In this document: in pieces, positions 12,934-60,440 of the stretch | Layout: each line of letters starts with the position of its first letter | Position numbering within the stretch: the first letter of the stretch is position 1 | Assembly (NCBI GenBank): GCA_951406725.2 | Contig: OX597818.1 | Coordinates: forward strand, 102,424,001-102,488,000 | Source: Octopus vulgaris | Lineage: Eukaryota | DNA length: 64,000 bases | Direction of reading: 5' to 3' | Translations under genes and position numbers: made by a program | Notes under the pieces: generated by a model | What the model was told of the DNA's origin: nothing | Seen by the model: the letters and a program-made list of their open reading frames with translations, nothing else | The model's database searches: none

Positions 12934-14172
12934 CGAGGGGCGTTCAATAAATAATGCCTCTGACCCACTTGCAGTTGTTTGATCTAGCTGAGATTTTGCA
13001 TGTGCAATTATTTATATCTCTATAGAGATATCTCTAATTGTGGTTTCTGATTTACAGGTGTTTGAACTGAGTCAAGTGTGAAATGGAGCCTGTTGAGTGT
13101 TGAGCAGTGATCCGGTTTTTGTATTTGAAAGGACGCACACCACGGGAGACTTTTGATGAAATGAAAGTAACTTATGGTGATGATGCCCCATCATATGATC
13201 TTGTAAAACGCTGTTATCGTGAATTCAAACATGGTCGGAACTCTTTGGAAACAGCTCCCAGATCTGGTCGCCCCCTTTCTGCCATTGATGAGGCATCTGT
13301 CCGTCAAGTTGAGGCTGCCATTTTGGAAGATCAACGCATAACTATTCGCCAAATAGCCCATGAGGTCAAGATTAGTACCGGGTCTGTGGAAACTATCATT
13401 CATGACCATTTGCATATGCAAAAGGTGTCTGCCAGATGGATTCCCAGGTTGCTCACACCTTTCCAGAAGGAAGAACGCGTCGAGTGCTCGAGGATGAATT
13501 TGGAGATGTGCCAAGAGGATGAGTCAACATTTTTCAAAAGACTGATTACACAGGAGGAAACCTGGGTCCATCACTATGATCCAGAGACCAAAGCCCAGTC
13601 AATGCAGTGGAAGCACCGTGACTCACCTCCTCCAAAGAAGGCAAGGGTGCAGCCCTCCGCTGGCAAGGTCATGCTCACAGTCTTCTGGGATCAGGACGGA
13701 GTAGTGATGACAGATTTCCTGGCAAAGGGTACCACAATTACAGGAGCCTATTATGCTTCACTTTTGAGGAAATTAAGAGAAGCTATCAAAATCAAGAGGC
13801 GGGGCAAGATCAGCAAAGCATCCTCCTCCTGCAGGACAACGCTCCGGTCCACAACTCGCGTGTAGCCAGATCAGAAGCACAGACGTGCGGCTATGAACTC
13901 CTCCCTCATTCCCCCTACTCTCCTGGCATTGCACTCTCTGATTTTCACCTCTTCCCAGCCATGAAGTTGTTTTTGAAAGGAAAGCGTTTCCCAGATGATG
14001 CAGCCTTGATTTCTAAAGTCACGTCGTGGTTGGAGGAACAAGCTGGGGTCTTCTACAAAAACGGTAACTCTGGGTGGTTTCTATGTAGAAAAAGACTAAT
14101 ACCTGTGCCAATATTCGTTGCTCTACTGCTATGGGAAGTGGGTTAGTGGCATTACTTATTGAACGCCCCTCG
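12934..14172 (+). mobile_element. Near full-length mariner DNA transposon (Hsmar2/irritans-like TIRs)
   Basis: TIRs CGAGGGGCGTTCAATAAATAATGCC / GGCATTACTTATTGAACGCCCCTCG, TA target duplication on both sides, 1239 bp. Confidence 0.95.
13083..14099 (+). pseudogene. Mariner DD34D transposase pseudogene
   Basis: ATG at 13083 with an early TGA; motifs RSGRP, WIPRLL, TQEETW (first catalytic D lost), LLQDNA after a frameshift near 13818, and PYSPGIALSDFHLF; apparent deletion near the 3' end. Confidence 0.93.
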
Positions 14173-16477: not shown

Positions 16478-16610
16478 TAGAGCAGTGCGTGCCATGAAAG
16501 TGACACTGGTGTAAAATATACAAAGTTCTAAATACCCATTATGACTACCCCTCTGATAAAGTTACACCAGACATCACAACCACATATGCGAGACATGATC
16601 TCATATAAAG
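16478..16610 (-). mobile_element. 5'-truncated copy of the ~545-bp (TAA)n-associated element
   Basis: GAGCAGTGCGTGCCATGAAAGTGACACTGG...CTGATAAAGTTACACCAG matches the left end of the copies at 22795-25149. Confidence 0.85.
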
Positions 16611-20400: not shown

Positions 20401-21145
20401 AAAAATTTATTTAGTTATTTTTTCACTTCGGTTGAGACATGTACTTTAATTTGCGTATATGTGTGTCATGTAAATTCCACGTAGTTGTGTAAACATTGGG
20501 ACGGGGTTATTTCTAATTGTATTATTGTCATTATTTCAGGCATAATTTATCTTGTACTTCATAATCCCCACATGTATTTCTCTTTTGTATTTACAGTCAA
20601 CGATTCTCGTCAACGCACAAGGCAGTCATTATGCTCCCCACCAAAAAACATCACCACGTGGACTCTGTTGAAAGTTGTAAGAAACAATTATGAACTTTTT
20701 TATTACACTTAACTTTTTAAAATATTTTTGATAAGCTTCGTTTTTTCAAGAATAACCAAAACATGGAAGAATCTCTAAGAAAATTTTTTTAAAATATTTT
20801 TTATAAAAATATACCCACTCGTATGCCACCTACACTTTTTATTTTAAAATATATATATATATATATATATAATTTCAACAATTGAGGGTAAAATTAATTA
20901 ATTAATCAATTTCACCAAGTATTCAGTATGCAAAGGGACCATTTAAGGCGAATTCAAATTATTACATTATATAAAAGGGCTTAGTAAAATAAATTACTTT
21001 GCCGCATACTGAACTCATTAGAAATAGCAGCTAAAAAAACTTTTTTTAAACTATTTCCAATACTTAAAGAAAATCTCTCTCATATAGTGTTTGCTCAATT
21101 CAACTCACGAAAGTATGGGGTAGAGACATTAAAAAATCAAATGCA

Positions 21146-21215
21146 AAGGTTATTTGAGAACGTACGTTTCAAGATCAGTCAAACTCGACACTTCTATCAT
21201 CAGCTCAGAACTCCC
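21146..21215 (-). ncRNA. Type I hammerhead ribozyme (left arm)
   Basis: Minus strand: TGAG-CTGATGA-TAGAAGTGTCGAGTTTGACTGATCTT-GAAAC-GTAC-GTT^CTCA; intact core, stem I TGAG/CTCA, stem III AC/GT with palindromic GTAC loop. Confidence 0.75.
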
Positions 21216-21950
21216 TGGTTTGGATTTGAAAACACTGAAAGTGGGAGCATACCCTTTCGGCTTCCTATCGCTTCTGAAGACCTGCTCGAAACTAACAGTG
21301 CTAGCAAATTCAAATATGCAAGCGAAGAACTTCTGCTCTCCCCTTTCCACCAGCGTGGGTTAAAATCAGTAAACACTATACTTTTTTCGGTAAAATCCGA
21401 GGCATTAAATAGAGAGAGATGAATTATAATTTCAACAATTGAGGGTAAAATTAATTAATTAATCAATTTCACCAAGTATTCAGTATGCAAAGGGACCATT
21501 TAAGGCGAATTCAAATTATTACATTATATAAAAGTATTTCTTTAAGTATTGGAAATAGTTTTAAAAAAGTTTTTTTAGCTGCTATTTCTAATGAGTTCAG
21601 TATGCGGCAAAGTAATTTATTTTACTAAGCCCTTTTATATAATGTAATAATTTGAATTCGCCTTAAATGGTCCCTTTGCATACTGAATACTTGGTGAAAT
21701 TGATTAATTAATTAATTTTACCCTCAATTGTTGAAATTATAATTCATCTCTCTCTATTTAATGCCTCGGATTTTACCGAAAAAAGTATAGTGTTTACTGA
21801 TTTTAACCCACGCTGGTGGAAAGGGGAGAGCAGAAATTCTTCGCTTGCATATTTGAGTTTGTTGGCACTGTTAGTTACGAGCAGATCTTCGAAAGCGATG
21901 AGAAGCCGAAAGGGTATGCTCTCACTTTCAGTGTTTTCAAATCCAAACCA

Positions 21951-22020
21951 GGGAGTTCTGAGCTGATGATAGAAGTGTCGAGTTTGACTAATCTTGAAAC
22001 GTACGTTCTCAAATAACCTT
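21951..22020 (+). ncRNA. Type I hammerhead ribozyme (right arm)
   Basis: CTGATGA at 21963-21969, stem II AGA..GTC/GAC..TCT, GAAAC at 21996-22000, predicted GUU cleavage after 22007, stem I TGAG/CTCA. Atypical U10.1-U11.1 closure. Confidence 0.75.
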
Positions 22021-22192
22021 TGCATTTGATTTTTTAATGTCTCTACCCCCATACTTTCGTGAGTTGAATTGAGCAAACACTATATGAGAGAGATTTTCTT
22101 TAAGTATTGGAAATAGTTTTAAAAAGTTTTTTTAGCTGCTATTTCTAATGAGTTCAGTATGCGGCAAAGTAATTTATTTTACTAAGCCCTTT

Positions 22193-22225
<33 letters not shown>

Positions 22226-22794: not shown

Positions 22795-23343
22795 GAGTGA
22801 GAGAGCAGTGCATGCCATCAAAGTGACACTGGGGTAAAAATATACGAAGCCCAATATACCCATCATGACTACACGTCTAATAAGGGTACACTAGGCACAT
22901 GCATTACAACCATATGTGCGCGACATAGTGATCTCATATCAATATAAACAGCACATGATCTTGCAGGTGGGGCCCAGTTAGAATTTTCTTCTGGTCGAGT
23001 AACCCATCCTGCTCAAAAGGTCCCTGAATAAGGGTTGTTTAAGGATGTTGAACGAAACACCCATATTTCCAGAGGTGAATTATTCAAAGCCCAAACAATC
23101 CCTCTCAACATATGGCTATGATGCTCCCCCACTACTTCTGCTCGTGATCAGAGATGCACATACCATCAGCCACTAAGGGACATGCTCAACTGGTTAAGGT
23201 CAAACAACTGACAAGCAAATCTGTGGTATTGAGCAGAATATTTGCTGTAGCCCATCTTTTATACCAAGACAAAACAATATACATGATAACACTTCCAATC
23301 AGTTAAGATTAGAAGCCATGAGAGCCACTGCCTGGTACTGCAT
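22795..23343 (-). mobile_element. ~545-bp non-coding (TAA)n-targeting element, copy 1
   Basis: GAGTGAGAGAGCAGTGCATGCCATCAAAGTGACACTGGGG...GAGCCACTGCCTGGTACTGCA, flanked by (TTA)n. Confidence 0.9.
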
Positions 23344-23365
23344 ATTATTATTATTATTATTATTA

Positions 23366-23430
<65 letters not shown>

Positions 23431-23445
23431 ATTATTATTATTATT

Positions 23446-23985
23446 GAGTGAGAGAGAAGTGCATGCCATTAAGTGACAGTAGGGTAAAATATACGAAGCC
23501 CAGTATACCAATCATGACTACTCGTCTGATAAGGGTACACCGGGCACATGCATCACAACCATATGTGCGCGACATGGTGATCTTATATCAAGATAAACAG
23601 CACATGACCTTGCTGGTGGGGCCCAGTTAGAATTTTTTTCAGGTCGAGTAGCCCATCCTGCTCAAAAAGTCCCTGAATAAGGATTGTTTAACGATGTTGA
23701 ACGAGTCGCCCATGTTTCCAAAGGTGAATTATCCAAACCTCCAAGAATTCCTTTCAACACACGGCTATGATGCTCCCCCACCACTTCTGCTCATGATCAG
23801 AGATGCACATATCGTCAGCCACTAAGAGACATGGTCAAAACAACTGACAAGCAAATCTGTGATATTGAGCAGAATATTTGCTCTAGCCCATCTTTTATAC
23901 CAAGACAAAACAATGTACATGATGACACTTCCAATCAGTCAAGATCACAAGCCATGAGAGCCACTGCCTGGAACTGCATCAGGGC

Positions 23986-23987
<2 letters not shown>
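23446..23987 (-). mobile_element. ~545-bp element, copy 2
   Basis: Colinear with copy 1; ends ...GCATCAGGGCATT followed by (TTA)n. Confidence 0.9.
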
Positions 23988-24062
<75 letters not shown>

Positions 24063-24072
24063 TCTTTTATTA

Positions 24073-24137
<65 letters not shown>

Positions 24138-24639
24138 GAGTGAGTGAGAGTGCAGTGCATGCGATCAAAGTGACACTGGGGTAAAATATACAAAGCCCAG
24201 TATACCCATCATGACTACCCATCTGATAAGGGTACACCAGGCACATGCATCACAACCATATGTGCGCGACATGGTGATCTCATATCAAGATAAACAGCAC
24301 ATGACCTTGCAAGTGGAGCCCAGTTAAAATTTTCTTTTGGTCGAGTAACCGATCCCGCTCAAACGGTCCCTGAATAAGGGTTGCTTTAGGATGTTGAACG
24401 AAACACCCATGTTTCCAGAGGTGAATTCTGCTTGTGATCAGAGATGCACATATCGTCAGTCACTAAGGGACATGCTCAACTGGTTATGGTCAAACAACTG
24501 ACAAGCAAATCTGTGGTATTGAGCAGAATATTTGCTGTAGCCCATCTTTTATACCCAGACAAAACAATGTACATGAAAACACTTCCAATCAGTTAAGATC
24601 AGAAGCCATGAGAGCCACTGCCTGGTACTGCATCAGGGC

Positions 24640-24641
<2 letters not shown>
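24138..24641 (-). mobile_element. ~545-bp element, copy 3 (internal deletion near 24427)
   Basis: Colinear with copies 1-2 but lacks the ~60-bp CAACATATGGCTATGATGCTCC segment. Confidence 0.9.
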
Positions 24642-24696
<55 letters not shown>

Positions 24697-25149
24697 GTGA
24701 GAGCAGTGCATGCCATCAAAGTGACACTGGGGTAAAATATACGAAGCCCAATATATCCAGCATGACTACCCGTCTGATAAGGGTACACTAGGCAGATATA
24801 TGATAACCATATGTGCGTTACATGATGATCTCATATCTAGATAAACTGCACATGTCCTTGTAGGTGGGGCCCAGTTAGAATTTTCTTCTGGTCGTGTGAC
24901 CCATCCCGCTCAAAAGGTCGCTGAATAAGTGTTGTTTAAGGATGTTGAACAAAACACCCATGTTTCCAGTGGTGAATTATTCAAACTCCAAAGAATCCCT
25001 CTCAACATATGGCTATGATGCTCCTCCACTACTTCTTTTCATGATCAGAGATGCACATACCTTCAGCCACTAAGGGGCATGCTCAACTGGTTAAGGTCAA
25101 ACAACTGACGAGCAAATCTGTGGTATTGAGCACAATATTTGCTGTAGCC
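24697..25149 (-). mobile_element. ~545-bp element, copy 4 (5'-truncated)
   Basis: Colinear up to GCTGTAGCC, then joins the LINE 3'-UTR fragment. Confidence 0.88.
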
Positions 25150-25150
25150 T

Positions 25151-25335
25151 ATCTTGACTTTTGCTTTGTACGTGTACAAGTTGGCTCCAAGTCTTACCGT
25201 GAGACCTCAAGAGACAACAAGTTAGATGGTCATGTTTGTGTTATGCCTAGGGTATCAAATATTTGGTTTTGCGCATAGTATTGTTCTAGATAATGTTTAA
25301 GAAAGCATAAGAAAATTATGAGTTTGTTTTAAAAT
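25151..25335 (-). mobile_element. 3'-UTR-only fragment of an R4/Dong-like LINE
   Basis: Colinear with 22546-22730. Confidence 0.75.
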
Positions 25336-43830: not shown

Positions 43831-44039
43831 ACCGGGGGACGTTTAAGATGTAAGAACGATAAAACAGAGCTCCGAAATCTATCCACAAACATCGAAAACA
43901 AGGACATCGTATGGAGCCAAAGATTTACTAACAAAGGATTGGACTGTATCCGAGTAAGTAATACTCATTGAAATTTATTACTATTTTCGAAACGAAATGA
44001 TGTATTTTGACTCGATATCATCTCCACCTCTAACACAAG

Positions 44040-47364
<3,325 letters not shown>

Positions 47365-55751: not shown

Positions 55752-55850
55752 TATATATATATATTTATAATAGGATTAGCTCGTATACGAGTAGGTATAT
55801 ATTTGTAAAAAATGAAGTTCGAAAATGCTGCTGTATTATACAATTTTTAA

Positions 55851-55921
55851 TTTTTATATATACATTATAACATGTTTCAGTTCCTGAAATGAACCTTATC
55901 AAAAAAAGTTATATATAAAAA
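55851..55921 (-). ncRNA. Variant type I hammerhead ribozyme in the left pLTR
   Basis: Mirror copy of 60269-60339. Confidence 0.55.
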
Positions 55922-56243
55922 GAGACAGCTCATGCCGTCAAACACAAGAAATTCATTTATAATACACAACGGAGTCAGACATCTTAGAGTTCATGTATAG
56001 TTGATATATAGTTCATGTATAGTTGATATATAGTTTGAAGTATATTTCAAAGTGTTCGATGCAGTGGCCCACGGTGGCGATACGTATTCAATACAAAAAA
56101 CAGATCAAAGTGGTGGAAAGCGGTCAATACAGAAGATTGATGTTTCCGAAAGAGCGAGGAATTCATTTTTACCTTAAGCAATTGTGATGACCCATGGTGG
56201 AAGTTCGCTGGGTGGTTCTAGTGATTTTTTGTGAAATGCTTGG

Positions 56244-56616
56244 TTTTATAATGCCTGTTAGGTGGTCAATCTAGCGTAGCGTGACGTCATCAATGTTTTG
56301 ACCAATCGTTTCGTTAGGTGGCTTTAATCAAGTGGAACGGGACGTCATCATTATTTTGACCAATCGCTGCATTATAACTCCTCTTGTTTGTTTCCTGTCT
56401 TGACCAGTCGCTTCGTTAGTCAAGCATAGCGGGATGTCATTCAGATTCTGCCCAATCACGACTTATAGCTACATTAGATCTGCCCCCTGTCTGTACTTGT
56501 TAGGTGACTATTCAAGCAGAAAAGGACGTCATCAATATTCTGACTAATGACTGTCCCCTGTTTGTATCCTGTCCATTCTAGCAGAGCTAGACGTCATCAA
56601 CTTGTTGACCAATCAG
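56244..56616 (-). promoter_or_regulatory. pLTR promoter: 5x (ATTGG-N12-TGACGTC) plus TATAAAA, pointing left
   Basis: Mirror copy of 59573-59946. Confidence 0.7.
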
Positions 56617-56782
56617 AATCGGGTCTGACCCTTAGCTGTATCGTATGTATCAGGGTCAGATTTGCACGAAAGAATTTTTTTCCTTTTTTTACTAAGGCAT
56701 ATTTCCGTCAGAGTGAGTGTCTGTTTGAAGTAGCGGCCGTGGTGAAATTTGGTTCTCCTTTTCGGAGGACTTATCTTTTGTT

Positions 56783-58939
56783 TTAGTATTCCTGGCCCAG
56801 GGTGTTTAAACTTGGTCTAAATTTTTTTATGAAATATAGTTCTTTATTTTGGCGTTGTGTGAAGGTTGCGTTGTCACTGAATTTATAGAGCGGGTTAGTT
56901 GTAAATTTCGGATTTACATTTCCAGCACATCTATCTATGTGTCCGCTGACCGGTATTTTGCGGTAATCAGGGTTTCTAATTTGTGATTTATGCACCGCCA
57001 TCCTGTTACGTAAGCTATTTTTTGTATGGCCTATATACTGCCTATTGCAGCCTGCGCATGTTATGACGTAAATTAAGTTTTCTGATGCGCAGGTGAAGTT
57101 TGTTCTAATGGTGAACTGGTGGCCTTGTTCCAGTATAAATTCTGATCCTTCTTTCAAGATGACACAGATTCCGCAGTTGGGCCTTCCACATTTTCTAACT
57201 GCTGGTTTTGTGGTTGATGTTGAGTGCAGTGTAGCTTGGGTTAAAATCCTTTTCAAGGATTTTGGTTGCCGTTTACTTTTAATGATGGTGTGTGTTTCGA
57301 GGATCCGGTTCATCTTTGGGTCTCCCTTTAGTAGGGCTGTGCTTTGTAGTATGGTGTTGAAGGCCTCATTGTTGAGTGGGTTGTGTGTAGAGATGTAGGG
57401 AAGGGTTTTTAATTGTTCTTTCTTTTTTGGTTTTGTTTGTCTCAGGTCTTCTATACTTAATTTAAGTACCCGTTGGATTGCACTGTCTATTAGGGGCTGT
57501 GGATAGTTTCTATTTGTGAGTGTGGTTGTAAGTTCCTGGAGACGTGTGTGTCGGGTGTTTGTGTCTGATATTATGGTGCAAATCCTTCTAGCTAAACAAA
57601 AAGGGACATTCATTCTAGTGTGTCGTGGGTGGCATGAATCAAAGGGTAGGTACTGTTTAGAGTCTGTCGGTTTATAGTAGATATCTGTCTCTATTTTGTT
57701 GCCGGTTATCTTAATGAGGATGTCTAAAAATGGTAATTCTTTTTCGTTGTGATCCATCGTGAATTGTATATTGTCATTTATTCCATTTAATAGAATTTTA
57801 AATTCCTCAAGTTTCTCTATGCCTTTGTCCCAGATGATGAAACAGTCATCGAGGTATCTTTTCCAGTTGTTATGGATATAGGTGGCGAAGGTGTTGCCAT
57901 ATTTCTCGAGTGTCATCCGGTATAGTATTTTCTCGAGGTATCCCATCACTAGGTTGGCAAAAGATGGTGCAGTACGCGTGCCCATCGCTGTTCCCGATCT
58001 TTGCCTGTAGAAATCATTGTCAAAAATAAAATAATTGTTCTCTAAAATGAATCTAAGTCCTTCTATTATTAGGTCTTTGTTTATGCGAGTTGGGAGTTCA
58101 AAGGGGTAGTTATTCAGCCAGAAGGTGATTGCTTCTATTCCTAGGTTGTGAGGGATGTTAGAATAAAGATTAACTACGTCGAATGATACTAGAAGGGTTT
58201 TCTCATTGACTGTTTTAGGGAGGTGGTTGAGCATATCTATATCGTCTCTTACGTAGCTTTTGATGTGTTTTAGGAAAGGTTTAAGAAGTGTGTCTAAGAA
58301 ATTGCTGAGGCGGTGAGTTTCCCATGCTGGCCCTGCTATTATCGGTCTTCGTTTAAGATCATTTGGTGAAGGGATTTTGATGAGTGTGTCGGTGGATGTT
58401 TTGCACGTTTCTCTAATGGTTTGGCTTTTGTGTACCTTAGGGATACCATAGAACAAACTCGATTTGCATTTGAAGTTAGTGATGTATTCATACTCCTTGT
58501 TCGTGAGTCCTTCTTGGTATGTGTTGATTAATGTCCTAAGGTTATGCATTATTTTTTGCTGGTTATACTGTTGGGCCCTTTCATAATACGTTTCATCTCT
58601 TAATAGGGATAGCACTAAATTTTTATAATTGTTTGTATTCATTATTACTATCGCGTTGCCCTTATCTGCCTCCTTAATTGTTATTGTTTTGTCTTCTTTT
58701 AGTTTGATGAGGTCGTTCCATTCTCTTTTGTTGAAGTTAGGGCTGTGTTTTTGTTTCTTGATGAATTGAAACGGGAAATTAGTTATGTAGTCACAATAGC
58801 GGTCTAAGGCTTTATTCTTACCTTTGGTGGGGGTGTAATTGCTCTTGTTTCTAGCTATTGAGTCCTCCTCTATTTGTTTGTCTTGAAATGCCTCGGTGAG
58901 TCTTAGTTTTCTGCAAAATTCCGAAATATCATCTTTCAT
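56783..58939 (-). CDS. Penelope-like reverse transcriptase / GIY-YIG endonuclease (Neptune-like), 5'-truncated; frame open up to ~59027
   Basis: LSKGLKFTPTP upstream of the listed Met; ADKG, FYGIPKVHK, RPII, SFDVVNLYSNIP, GTAMG, RYLDD, LPFLD; Cys linker CGRPNCGIC; GIY-YIG NLIYVITCAGCNRQYIGHT..R..H. Confidence 0.95.
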   Translation of the reverse strand: MKDDISEFCRKLRLTEAFQDKQIEEDSIARNKSNYTPTKGKNKALDRYCDYITNFPFQFIKKQKHSPNFNKREWNDLIKLKEDKTITIKEADKGNAIVIMNTNNYKNLVLSLLRDETYYERAQQYNQQKIMHNLRTLINTYQEGLTNKEYEYITNFKCKSSLFYGIPKVHKSQTIRETCKTSTDTLIKIPSPNDLKRRPIIAGPAWETHRLSNFLDTLLKPFLKHIKSYVRDDIDMLNHLPKTVNEKTLLVSFDVVNLYSNIPHNLGIEAITFWLNNYPFELPTRINKDLIIEGLRFILENNYFIFDNDFYRQRSGTAMGTRTAPSFANLVMGYLEKILYRMTLEKYGNTFATYIHNNWKRYLDDCFIIWDKGIEKLEEFKILLNGINDNIQFTMDHNEKELPFLDILIKITGNKIETDIYYKPTDSKQYLPFDSCHPRHTRMNVPFCLARRICTIISDTNTRHTRLQELTTTLTNRNYPQPLIDSAIQRVLKLSIEDLRQTKPKKKEQLKTLPYISTHNPLNNEAFNTILQSTALLKGDPKMNRILETHTIIKSKRQPKSLKRILTQATLHSTSTTKPAVRKCGRPNCGICVILKEGSEFILEQGHQFTIRTNFTCASENLIYVITCAGCNRQYIGHTKNSLRNRMAVHKSQIRNPDYRKIPVSGHIDRCAGNVNPKFTTNPLYKFSDNATFTQRQNKELYFIKKFRPSLNTLGQEY

Positions 58940-59031
58940 TTCATAATAATTAGAACGTTGTGGGGTGGGTGTAAATTTAAGTCCTTTGGAGAGTATGCTT
59001 ATTTCGTTAGGTGTAAGTTCTTTGTCCTATC

Positions 59032-59406
59032 TTGAAAGAAGGATCAGAATTTATACTGGAACAAGGCCACCAGTTCATCATTAGAACAAACTTCACCTGC
59101 GCATCAGAAAACTTAATTTACGTCATAACATGCGCAGGCTGCAATAGGCAGTATATAGGCCATACAAAAAATAGCTTACGTAACAGGATGGCGGTGCATA
59201 AATCACAAATTAGAAACCCTGATTACCGCAAAATACCGGTCAGCGGACACATAGATAGATGTGCTGGAAATGTAAATCCGAAATTTACAACTAACCCGCT
59301 CTATAAATTCAGTGACAACGCAACCTTCACACAACGCCAAAATAAAGAACTATATTTCATAAAAAAATTTAGACCAAGTTTAAACACCCTGGGCCAGGAA
59401 TACTAA
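59032..59406 (+). pseudogene. Inverted duplicate of the GIY-YIG C-terminus within the right arm
   Basis: 124 aa identical to the end of the 718-aa ORF except T->I; no true start codon. Confidence 0.92.
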
Positions 59407-59572
59407 AACAAAAGATAAGTCCTCCGAAAAGGAGAACCAAATTTCACCACGGCCGCTACTTCAAACAGACACTCACTCTGACGGAAATATGCCTTAGTAA
59501 AAAAGGGAACAAAATTCTTTCGTGCAAATCTGACCCTGATACATACGATACAGCTAAGGGTCAGACCCGATT

Positions 59573-59946
59573 CTGATTGGTCAACAAGTTGATGACGTCT
59601 AGCTCTGCTAGAATGGACAGGATACAAACAGGGGACAGTCATTAGTCAGAATATTGATGACGTCCTTTTCTGCTTGAATAGTCACCTAACAAGTACAGAC
59701 AGGGGGCAGATCTAATGTAGCTATAAGTCGTGATTGGGCAGAATCTGAATGACATCCCGCTATGCTTGACTAACGAAGCGACTGGTCAAGACAGGAAACA
59801 AACAAGAGGGAGTTATAATGCAGCGATTGGTCAAAATAATGATGACGTCCCGTTCCACTTGATTAAAGCCACCTAACGAAACGATTGGTCAAAACATTGA
59901 TGACGTCACGCTACGCTAGATTGACCACCTAACAGGCATTATAAAA
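59573..59946 (+). promoter_or_regulatory. pLTR promoter: 5x (ATTGG-N12-TGACGTC) plus TATAAAA, pointing right
   Basis: ATTGG/ATTAG at 59576, 59641, 59733, 59826 and 59884, each exactly 12 bp before TGACGTC/TGACATC; TATAAAA at 59940-59946. Confidence 0.7.
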
Positions 59947-60268
59947 CCAAGCATTTCACAAAAAATCACTAGAACCACCCAGCGAACTTCCACCATGGGT
60001 CATCACAATTGCTTAAGGTAAAAATGAATTCCTCGCTCTTTCGGAAACATCAATCTTCTGTATTGACCGCTTTCCACCACTTTGATCTGTTTTTTGTATT
60101 GAATACGTATCGCCACCGTGGGCCACTGCATCGAACACTTTGAAATATACTTCAAACTATATATCAACTATACATGAACTATATATCAACTATACATGAA
60201 CTCTAAGATGTCTGACTCCGTTGTGTATTATAAATGAATTTCTTGTGTTTGACGGCATGAGCTGTCTC

Positions 60269-60339
60269 TTTTTATATATAACTTTTTTTGATAAGGTTCA
60301 TTTCAGGAACTGAAACATGTTATAATGTATATATAAAAA
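60269..60339 (+). ncRNA. Variant type I hammerhead ribozyme in the right pLTR
   Basis: TTGATAA (U3-A8 in place of C3-G8) - GGTTC ATTTCAG GAACT - GAAAC AT GT T; distal stem I TTTTTATATATA/TATATATAAAAA. Confidence 0.55.
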
Positions 60340-60383
60340 TTAAAAATTGTATAATACAGCAGCATTTTCGAACTTCATTTTTT

Positions 60384-60440
<57 letters not shown>

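Follow-up and report, generated by a model that had tools for sequence, protein, structure and literature searches.

A hammerhead retrozyme family in Octopus vulgaris whose insertion ends point to Penelope-like priming from both sides of the target

We found that a non-coding hammerhead repeat of Octopus vulgaris belongs to a large, young and dispersed family whose RNA was probably reverse-transcribed in trans by the reverse transcriptase (RT) and GIY-YIG protein of a Penelope-like element (PLE), starting from both ends of a (TA)n target. By its sequence features, the element fits the animal non-LTR retrozyme type mobilised by a PLE. This class of element is already known, and the family is a real addition to it. 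A search of the openly available literature returned no description of the family, which Dfam, Repbase or the bioRxiv supplements may list under another name.

Anatomy of the window locus

The window, the whole 64,000-nt stretch of DNA that we analysed, contains at positions 20868–22200 two back-to-back arms of a 557/558-nt unit, flanked by (TA)n target tract on both sides (left part, delimited from the sequence, 20849–20867; right part, 22201–22225). Unit positions (u) are counted from the base after the predicted hammerhead cut, so that u1 is window position 22008. The left arm (20868–21534, minus strand) is 667 nt or 1.2 units long; it runs from a 5′ end at u183 to a 3′ end at a site that we call B (u292), and its internal repeat matches at 110/110 nt at a spacing of 557. 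The right arm (21537–22200, plus strand), likewise 1.2 units with a unit of 558, runs from u88 to a second site, A (u192–197), and its end is ambiguous up to 22203, where the arm runs into TA. These two 5′-truncated arms meet head to head at 21535–21536 with two extra bases. A complete 3′ module that holds sites A and B (about u98–292) and is common to three sister families occupies 20868–21062 on the minus strand. The right arm carries an internal complete copy of this module (21547–21741, plus strand) and, at its end, a partial module (22105–22200, plus strand) that stops at site A, an AU-rich segment predicted to be single-stranded. The GC content of the unit is 0.34, the locus has no terminal repeats beyond the tandem overlap, and the sole long open reading frame (144 aa, antisense, 20988–21422) had no Pfam match. 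Together with the descriptor matches given below, this layout confirms the original prediction of two inverted arms of a 557/558-bp non-coding unit, each with a type I hammerhead. Equal arm length (667/667) was rejected as a family feature after comparison with other loci, being a coincidence of this one, and an Rfam match to mir-2513 at the locus was rejected as the inverted junction itself. An old PLE 3′ end at about 20600–20848, roughly 78% identical to pLTRs in two other records (L055 and L059), has its end in the (TA)n tract that also received the retrozyme, so that this tract was hit twice.

The hammerhead motifs lie at 21155–21207 (minus strand, predicted cut between 21159 and 21158) and at 21959–22011 (plus strand, predicted cut after 22007). 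In the right-arm copy, the core comprises CUGAUGA (21963–21969) and GAAA (21996–21999), with a 4-bp stem I, a U-U at the base of stem II and a 2-bp stem III with a palindromic loop; the core of the minus-strand copy starts at 21203. A loose descriptor (C3-G8 form) gave two matches in the window, both in this element, compared with 0.025 matches per 64-kb Markov control (40 controls). Genome-wide, the exact pattern occurs 1,429 times (716 + 713), and the reversed control gave 0 matches. The original prediction had proposed a check with Rfam type I hammerhead models; here no hammerhead family was matched, either by the whole window at the gathering score or by the locus at E ≤ 10. In local folding the hammerhead lies at −2.4 kcal/mol, above the best structure at −11.9 kcal/mol (z positive). 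In animal type I hammerheads, helix III is usually weak and requires a second copy, according to the available text of PMC4209133.

We sampled variation of the hammerhead in loci chosen independently of the hammerhead pattern. This yielded 31 distinct strings, one of which was an antisense artefact, leaving 30. Position 7 is U, C or A and position 17 is U or A depending on the subfamily, and subfamilies also differ in loop 3, in stem II and at the 10.1/11.1 pair. In three strings, one record each, the CUGA-GA or GAAA core is damaged, and a few other single records have changes in stem III. The hammerhead varies among subfamilies mainly at positions tolerant of change. Folded as a circle, the monomer reaches −151.9 kcal/mol, compared with −113.9 ± 6.8 kcal/mol for 60 shuffles (z −5.6) and −124.5 kcal/mol for its antisense. 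When 18 diverse natural units were placed on the structure, 98.2% of cells paired, and changes on both sides were found in 14/152 pairs, compared with 2.8 in shuffled and 2–5 in slid alignments; the structure behind these counts was itself obtained from the same set of related units, so the counts give support, not proof. Judged from these comparisons, the ribozyme and the unit fold look selected. Sites A and B are predicted to be unpaired (0.74 and 0.74) and the other two TATA sites paired (0.01); no arm ended at either of the latter.

Several other elements lie in the window. Four copies of a ~550-bp repeat, 88–96% alike and separated by (ATT)n, occupy 22795–25155; the repeat is unclassified, and an older fragment of it is found at 16479–16609. 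A Mariner-type transposase in two overlapping frames lies at 13104–14146, and a non-LTR-type reverse transcriptase gene in several frames at 44034–46846.

The family and its insertion ends

A search of the unit against the genome (2.80 Gb, 227 contigs) gave 1,624 candidates, and among the 40 that were scored there were full-length family matches at 94–98% identity. The mapped set comprises 86 separate insertions: 39 were chosen by similarity, from 49 records of which eight duplicates were dropped and two neighbour pairs read together, and 47 by position on one contig, C1 (14 of 30 records after removal of same-insertion records, plus 33 fetched stretches). They are dispersed on many contigs with distinct junctions, and TA tracts lie on both sides in 76/86 and on one side in 10/86. 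The family is large, young and dispersed, and it is mobile and not a single satellite, as anticipated for a non-LTR retrozyme in (TA)n. A tblastn search over 172 + 20 + 30 family records found no attached PLE open reading frame, only separate neighbouring pieces, which agrees with the expectation that the repeat is not an ordinary pLTR. Most of the element is covered by contigs from four runs of uncertain kind, a type of data blind to ends, strand and circles, and no RNA run was listed among those with the sequence; neither observation bears on expression.

Earlier reading had the arms starting at different permutation points. This holds for the 5′ ends, which are scattered (chi-square p = 0.08), and not for the 3′ ends, which are fixed at A and B, two AU-rich sites separated by about 95 nt. 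Only 3/122 arms have a 5′ end at the predicted cut (3.3 expected), so there is no pile-up there; at least one cut site is crossed by 103/122 arms and two by 27/122. Because arms cross the cut sites without a 5′ pile-up, the template was continuous through the ribozyme site. Site A falls mostly at u192–204 and was counted as u165–210, and site B falls at u292 and was counted as u283–312; these limits were set on the first (similarity) set and applied unchanged to the position-picked set. Ends at A or B run straight into TA, taken as (TA)3, in 144/147 cases. Both ends fall at A or B in 62 two-armed insertions, of which 61 are A/B, one is B/B and none is A/A; A/B was found in 34/35 of the position-picked set. 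The remaining 24 of the 86 insertions comprise 11 with a single B, eight with a single A and five others. B/B insertions occur in divergent subfamilies, at L119 and at L201 (the latter outside the 86), which are 76–85% identical to the window unit, and the reciprocal rule may differ among subfamilies. A further candidate rule, suggested by the window locus, that the 5′ end of one arm always meets the 3′ site of the other, was rejected because it held in only 12/55.

When both arms of an insertion are compared over 85 shared polymorphic columns, 1.1% of these differ (n = 44), against 24.8% between loci at the same columns. The 70 loci compared fall into 46 haplotype groups. Of the locus-private changes, 39 (16 in the divergent L119) occur throughout, in all copies of both arms, and 85 are confined to some copies. 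The window locus is the only mosaic among the 44 two-armed insertions compared. Its arms differ at 12 positions (11.9% of shared polymorphic columns), and a patch in the right arm (u408–473; 21857–21922, plus strand) matches another family haplotype at 10/10. This patch may have arisen by a template switch or by later gene conversion, and because of these differences one uniform circle is insufficient at the window locus.

Two-end priming and the form of the template

The reciprocal A/B ends amount to the 'tail at one end' signature of Penelope elements and are best explained by two-end priming on one RNA; the insertion anatomy thus directly supports the earlier suggestion that the element is likely to be mobilised by Penelope. 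Like a PLE derivative, the element has an inverted truncated arm, a one-sided tail and a microsatellite target. EN+ PLEs (Penelope/Poseidon, Neptune, Naiad and Hydra) share with it partial tandems, an inverted 5′-truncated copy, a tail at one end, (TA)n targets and a hammerhead upstream of the 3′ ends; of these, the inverted truncated copy, microsatellite targets and a tail that is often confined to one end are given as their marks in the available parts of PMC8557442 and PMC3846280. The mechanism of tandem and inverted one-tailed PLE insertion is still described as undefined (PMC8557442, available text), and the link between retrozymes and PLEs is presented as resting on co-occurrence and pLTR similarity (bioRxiv 10.64898/2026.07.22.740005, available text). 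In vitro, the purified protein of one PLE, a predicted dimer, cuts both strands of the target and extends them, and its two internal start sites on the RNA define the tail (PMC11167929, available text); this counts in favour of our explanation. EN+ PLEs differ in having an open reading frame and a tail of 30–40 bp; the present family has no open reading frame and a tail of ~95 nt, and this difference in tail length counts against our explanation. So does the behaviour of the anole PLE, which primes without target homology and prefers uncut RNA in vitro (PMC11167929), whereas the ends here show TATA microhomology to the target. We also count against it the missing Rfam hammerhead match, the B/B insertions and a report, in a single study, that 8/9 predicted frog retrozyme dimers failed to cleave (bioRxiv 10.64898/2026.07.22.740005).

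We propose that insertion would begin with transcription of a tandem copy. The weak hammerhead would cut this RNA, probably as a dimer formed through the palindromic stem III, and the monomer would be ligated to a circle. A PLE protein, probably itself a dimer, would bind the ~200-nt 3′ module, and DNA ends in ...TATA would pair with two exposed AU-rich sites, one B and one A, of the same RNA. Both cDNAs would then run through hammerhead cut sites and stop at variable points, and the two would be joined head to head over a microhomology or filler of a few bases.

In L1 twin priming, both target ends prime on one RNA, which gives a head-to-head inversion with short microhomology. L1 differs in its poly(A) and variable second site, where the present family has no poly(A) and a fixed second site, and the arms here overlap by whole units, unlike those of L1. 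We found no application of twin priming to PLEs in a search of the openly available literature.

For the template, we favour a unit-length circle only slightly over an uncut linear multimer. The permuted 5′ ends do not prove a circle because an uncut linear multimer gives the same. We count for the circle that there are many haplotypes yet clonal insertions, that B/B is rare and that no template ends are seen, and also a modest excess of coincident 5′ ends. Circles have been demonstrated for other retrozymes (PMC7229834, available text), and circular templates for PLE RT had already been proposed in part of the earlier literature.

In its full form, the multimer alternative would have PLE priming at two sites on a long linear uncut transcript of a homogeneous array, the hammerhead trimming or acting later and no circle being made; we consider this unlikely. 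Arms and arrays of up to ~16 units exist, and uncut RNA is the dominant substrate of the anole PLE in vitro, in the available text of PMC11167929. The window locus is mosaic, and long arrays contain periodic variants (period 5 in L023 and L024, period 2 in L026), which suggests higher-order expansion after insertion or multimeric templates; this periodicity counts against our explanation, with the reservation that long arrays may grow after insertion. B arms end near site A (u155–210, an interval chosen after seeing the data) in 12/55 insertions, compared with 5.5 expected (p = 0.007), and seven of the 12 do so on a second passage, one unit further. Such second-lap stops are as L1-type twin priming on a multimer predicts and are simpler on a linear multimer. 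On the other hand, 46 haplotypes among 70 loci would need many sources, yet only 27/122 arms cross two cuts, and daughters would shorten with each round. A multimer would offer free B sites upstream, yet only one of the 62 insertions is B/B, and the cut site has no 5′ pile-up. In addition, both 5′ ends fall within 12 nt of each other in 8/55 insertions (2.7 expected, p = 0.005; six, p = 0.05, once long palindromic overlaps are left out), in some cases offset by one lap.

A bolder version of two-end priming on one RNA is that two Penelope RT active sites copy one ribozyme-made circle of unit length simultaneously, one for each target end, from the two exposed sites of a conserved ~200-nt docking module, that this module is portable and has been retained in at least four families whose hammerheads differ, and that the same geometry explains the one-tail inversion of PLEs. 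We offer this tentatively, as possible rather than probable.

The inverted arm could instead stem from fold-back (self-priming) of the first cDNA or from recombination after insertion. Self-priming has been proposed for palindromic PLE junctions (PMC3846280, available text), shared haplotypes would follow from it trivially, and 5/55 junctions have identical 5′ positions. Most junctions, however, join unrelated unit positions, both ends lie at fixed sites joined to TA, and either arm can be far the longer: the A arm is longer in 28/55, the B arm is longer by more than 110 nt in 21/55, and the extreme case, L106, has an A arm of 3307 and a B arm of 133. This asymmetry in both directions already largely refutes fold-back, which we regard as highly improbable. 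It is equally hard to credit that the repeat is a satellite, an error of assembly, or a pLTR or 3′ end that has come loose from an autonomous PLE. In favour of such readings, frog retrozymes have a relationship to pLTRs (bioRxiv 10.64898/2026.07.22.740005, available text), PLE fragments lie near several copies, and the GIY-YIG scan for PLE families of the genome had 150 of its 6,136 candidates scored. Against them, in the loci inspected the module is preceded by the previous unit, an inverted arm, TA or unrelated flank, the nearby PLE pieces end in TA tracts of their own or face away, the 86 insertions are dispersed with distinct junctions, and the sequence is present in runs of three organism labels.

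The shared 3′ module and related elements

Through a 70%-identical relative of u120–292 we reached three sister families. Family 2 (1,800 candidates) has a unit of about 580–595 nt and a different hammerhead, the hammerhead of family 3 (1,930 candidates) carries U3, with position 8 either G or A, and family 4 has a unit of 591 nt. All three keep the 3′ module, and they have the same two ends where inspected by eye. The module motif has 5,510 matches in the genome and none in the control, and changes on both sides occur in 4/39 module pairs across families. From this conservation, the 3′ module is likely to be an RT-binding signal. In one record (L156:1304–1865), three solo family-2 modules stand in a row, separated by TA and without the hammerhead part. 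Another (L058:454, plus strand, with an inverted copy) may represent a fifth retrozyme family: its type I hammerhead is canonical, stem II is long and the palindromic loop differs.

An autonomous PLE with the module was not found among 51 PLE locus records by blastn and module profile, and the sampled PLEs of this genome have no sequence similarity to the retrozyme unit; the absence of a module-bearing partner from the sampled records counts against our explanation. The published consensus files for Naiad, Chlamys and Hydra (PMC8557442 supplement) contained none of three short exact motifs of the module. The window contains a young PLE in (TA)n (55765–60388), with an open reading frame on the minus strand (56783–59026) for RT and GIY-YIG; this frame, of 747 aa, is 5′-truncated relative to 781-aa copies elsewhere. 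An inverted 3′ piece starts at 59017, and a tail of ~40 nt is present on the left end only. Its layout is the same as the retrozyme anatomy and counts in favour of a PLE mechanism. The window PLE also has a hammerhead-like motif with a U3-A8 core near 60285–60325. Full 781-aa frames have many copies in the genome, with an overlapping upstream open reading frame. A second PLE family (L053, L185, L186 and L194) has a CUGAAGA hammerhead ~150 nt before its (TA)n-joined 3′ end.

The family agrees with animal non-LTR retrozymes in its tandem non-coding units with one type I hammerhead each, its lack of LTR, PBS and PPT, its low GC (34%), its ends joined to (TA)n, its highly self-paired unit, its dispersal as dimers to long arrays and the presence of PLEs in the same genome. 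Axolotl HHR_Amex2, as described in the available text of PMC7229834, likewise combines a 2-bp stem III with a U-U at the base of stem II. Validated retrozyme circles, of ~170–400 nt in the same text, are smaller than the 557-nt RNA predicted here. The unit had been called unusually large, which does not stand: vertebrate retrozyme families span 51–972 bp, with a mean of 650 in ray-finned fish (bioRxiv 10.64898/2026.07.22.740005, available text). The available parts of PMC7229834 and bioRxiv 10.64898/2026.07.22.740005 mention neither two-armed inverted insertions whose fixed ends are reciprocal nor a shared 3′ module, and the word 'inverted' does not occur in PMC7229834.

No copy tested has the attached RT and GIY-YIG open reading frame of an autonomous PLE with an ordinary pLTR. 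Its type I hammerhead in (TA)n tandems also differs from plant LTR retrozymes, which have a type III hammerhead in LTRs and a 4-bp target duplication. Chlamys MRC1 is, like it, a non-coding PLE parasite with multicopy head-to-tail insertions; Chlamys elements as a rule have 3′ sequence in common with a known autonomous family, where we found none here among the PLE records sampled, and their clade is without canonical hammerheads, where one is present here (PMC8557442, available text).

With two target ends, two fixed RNA sites and reciprocal ends in 61/62, the family is a large, young natural data set in which both arms come from one sequence variant, and it provides an unusually clean, testable record of PLE insertion. 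Mutants of the ~200-nt structured module and of the two candidate priming sites could be compared in an in vitro PLE assay, and the family would allow a direct test of circular against multimeric templates.
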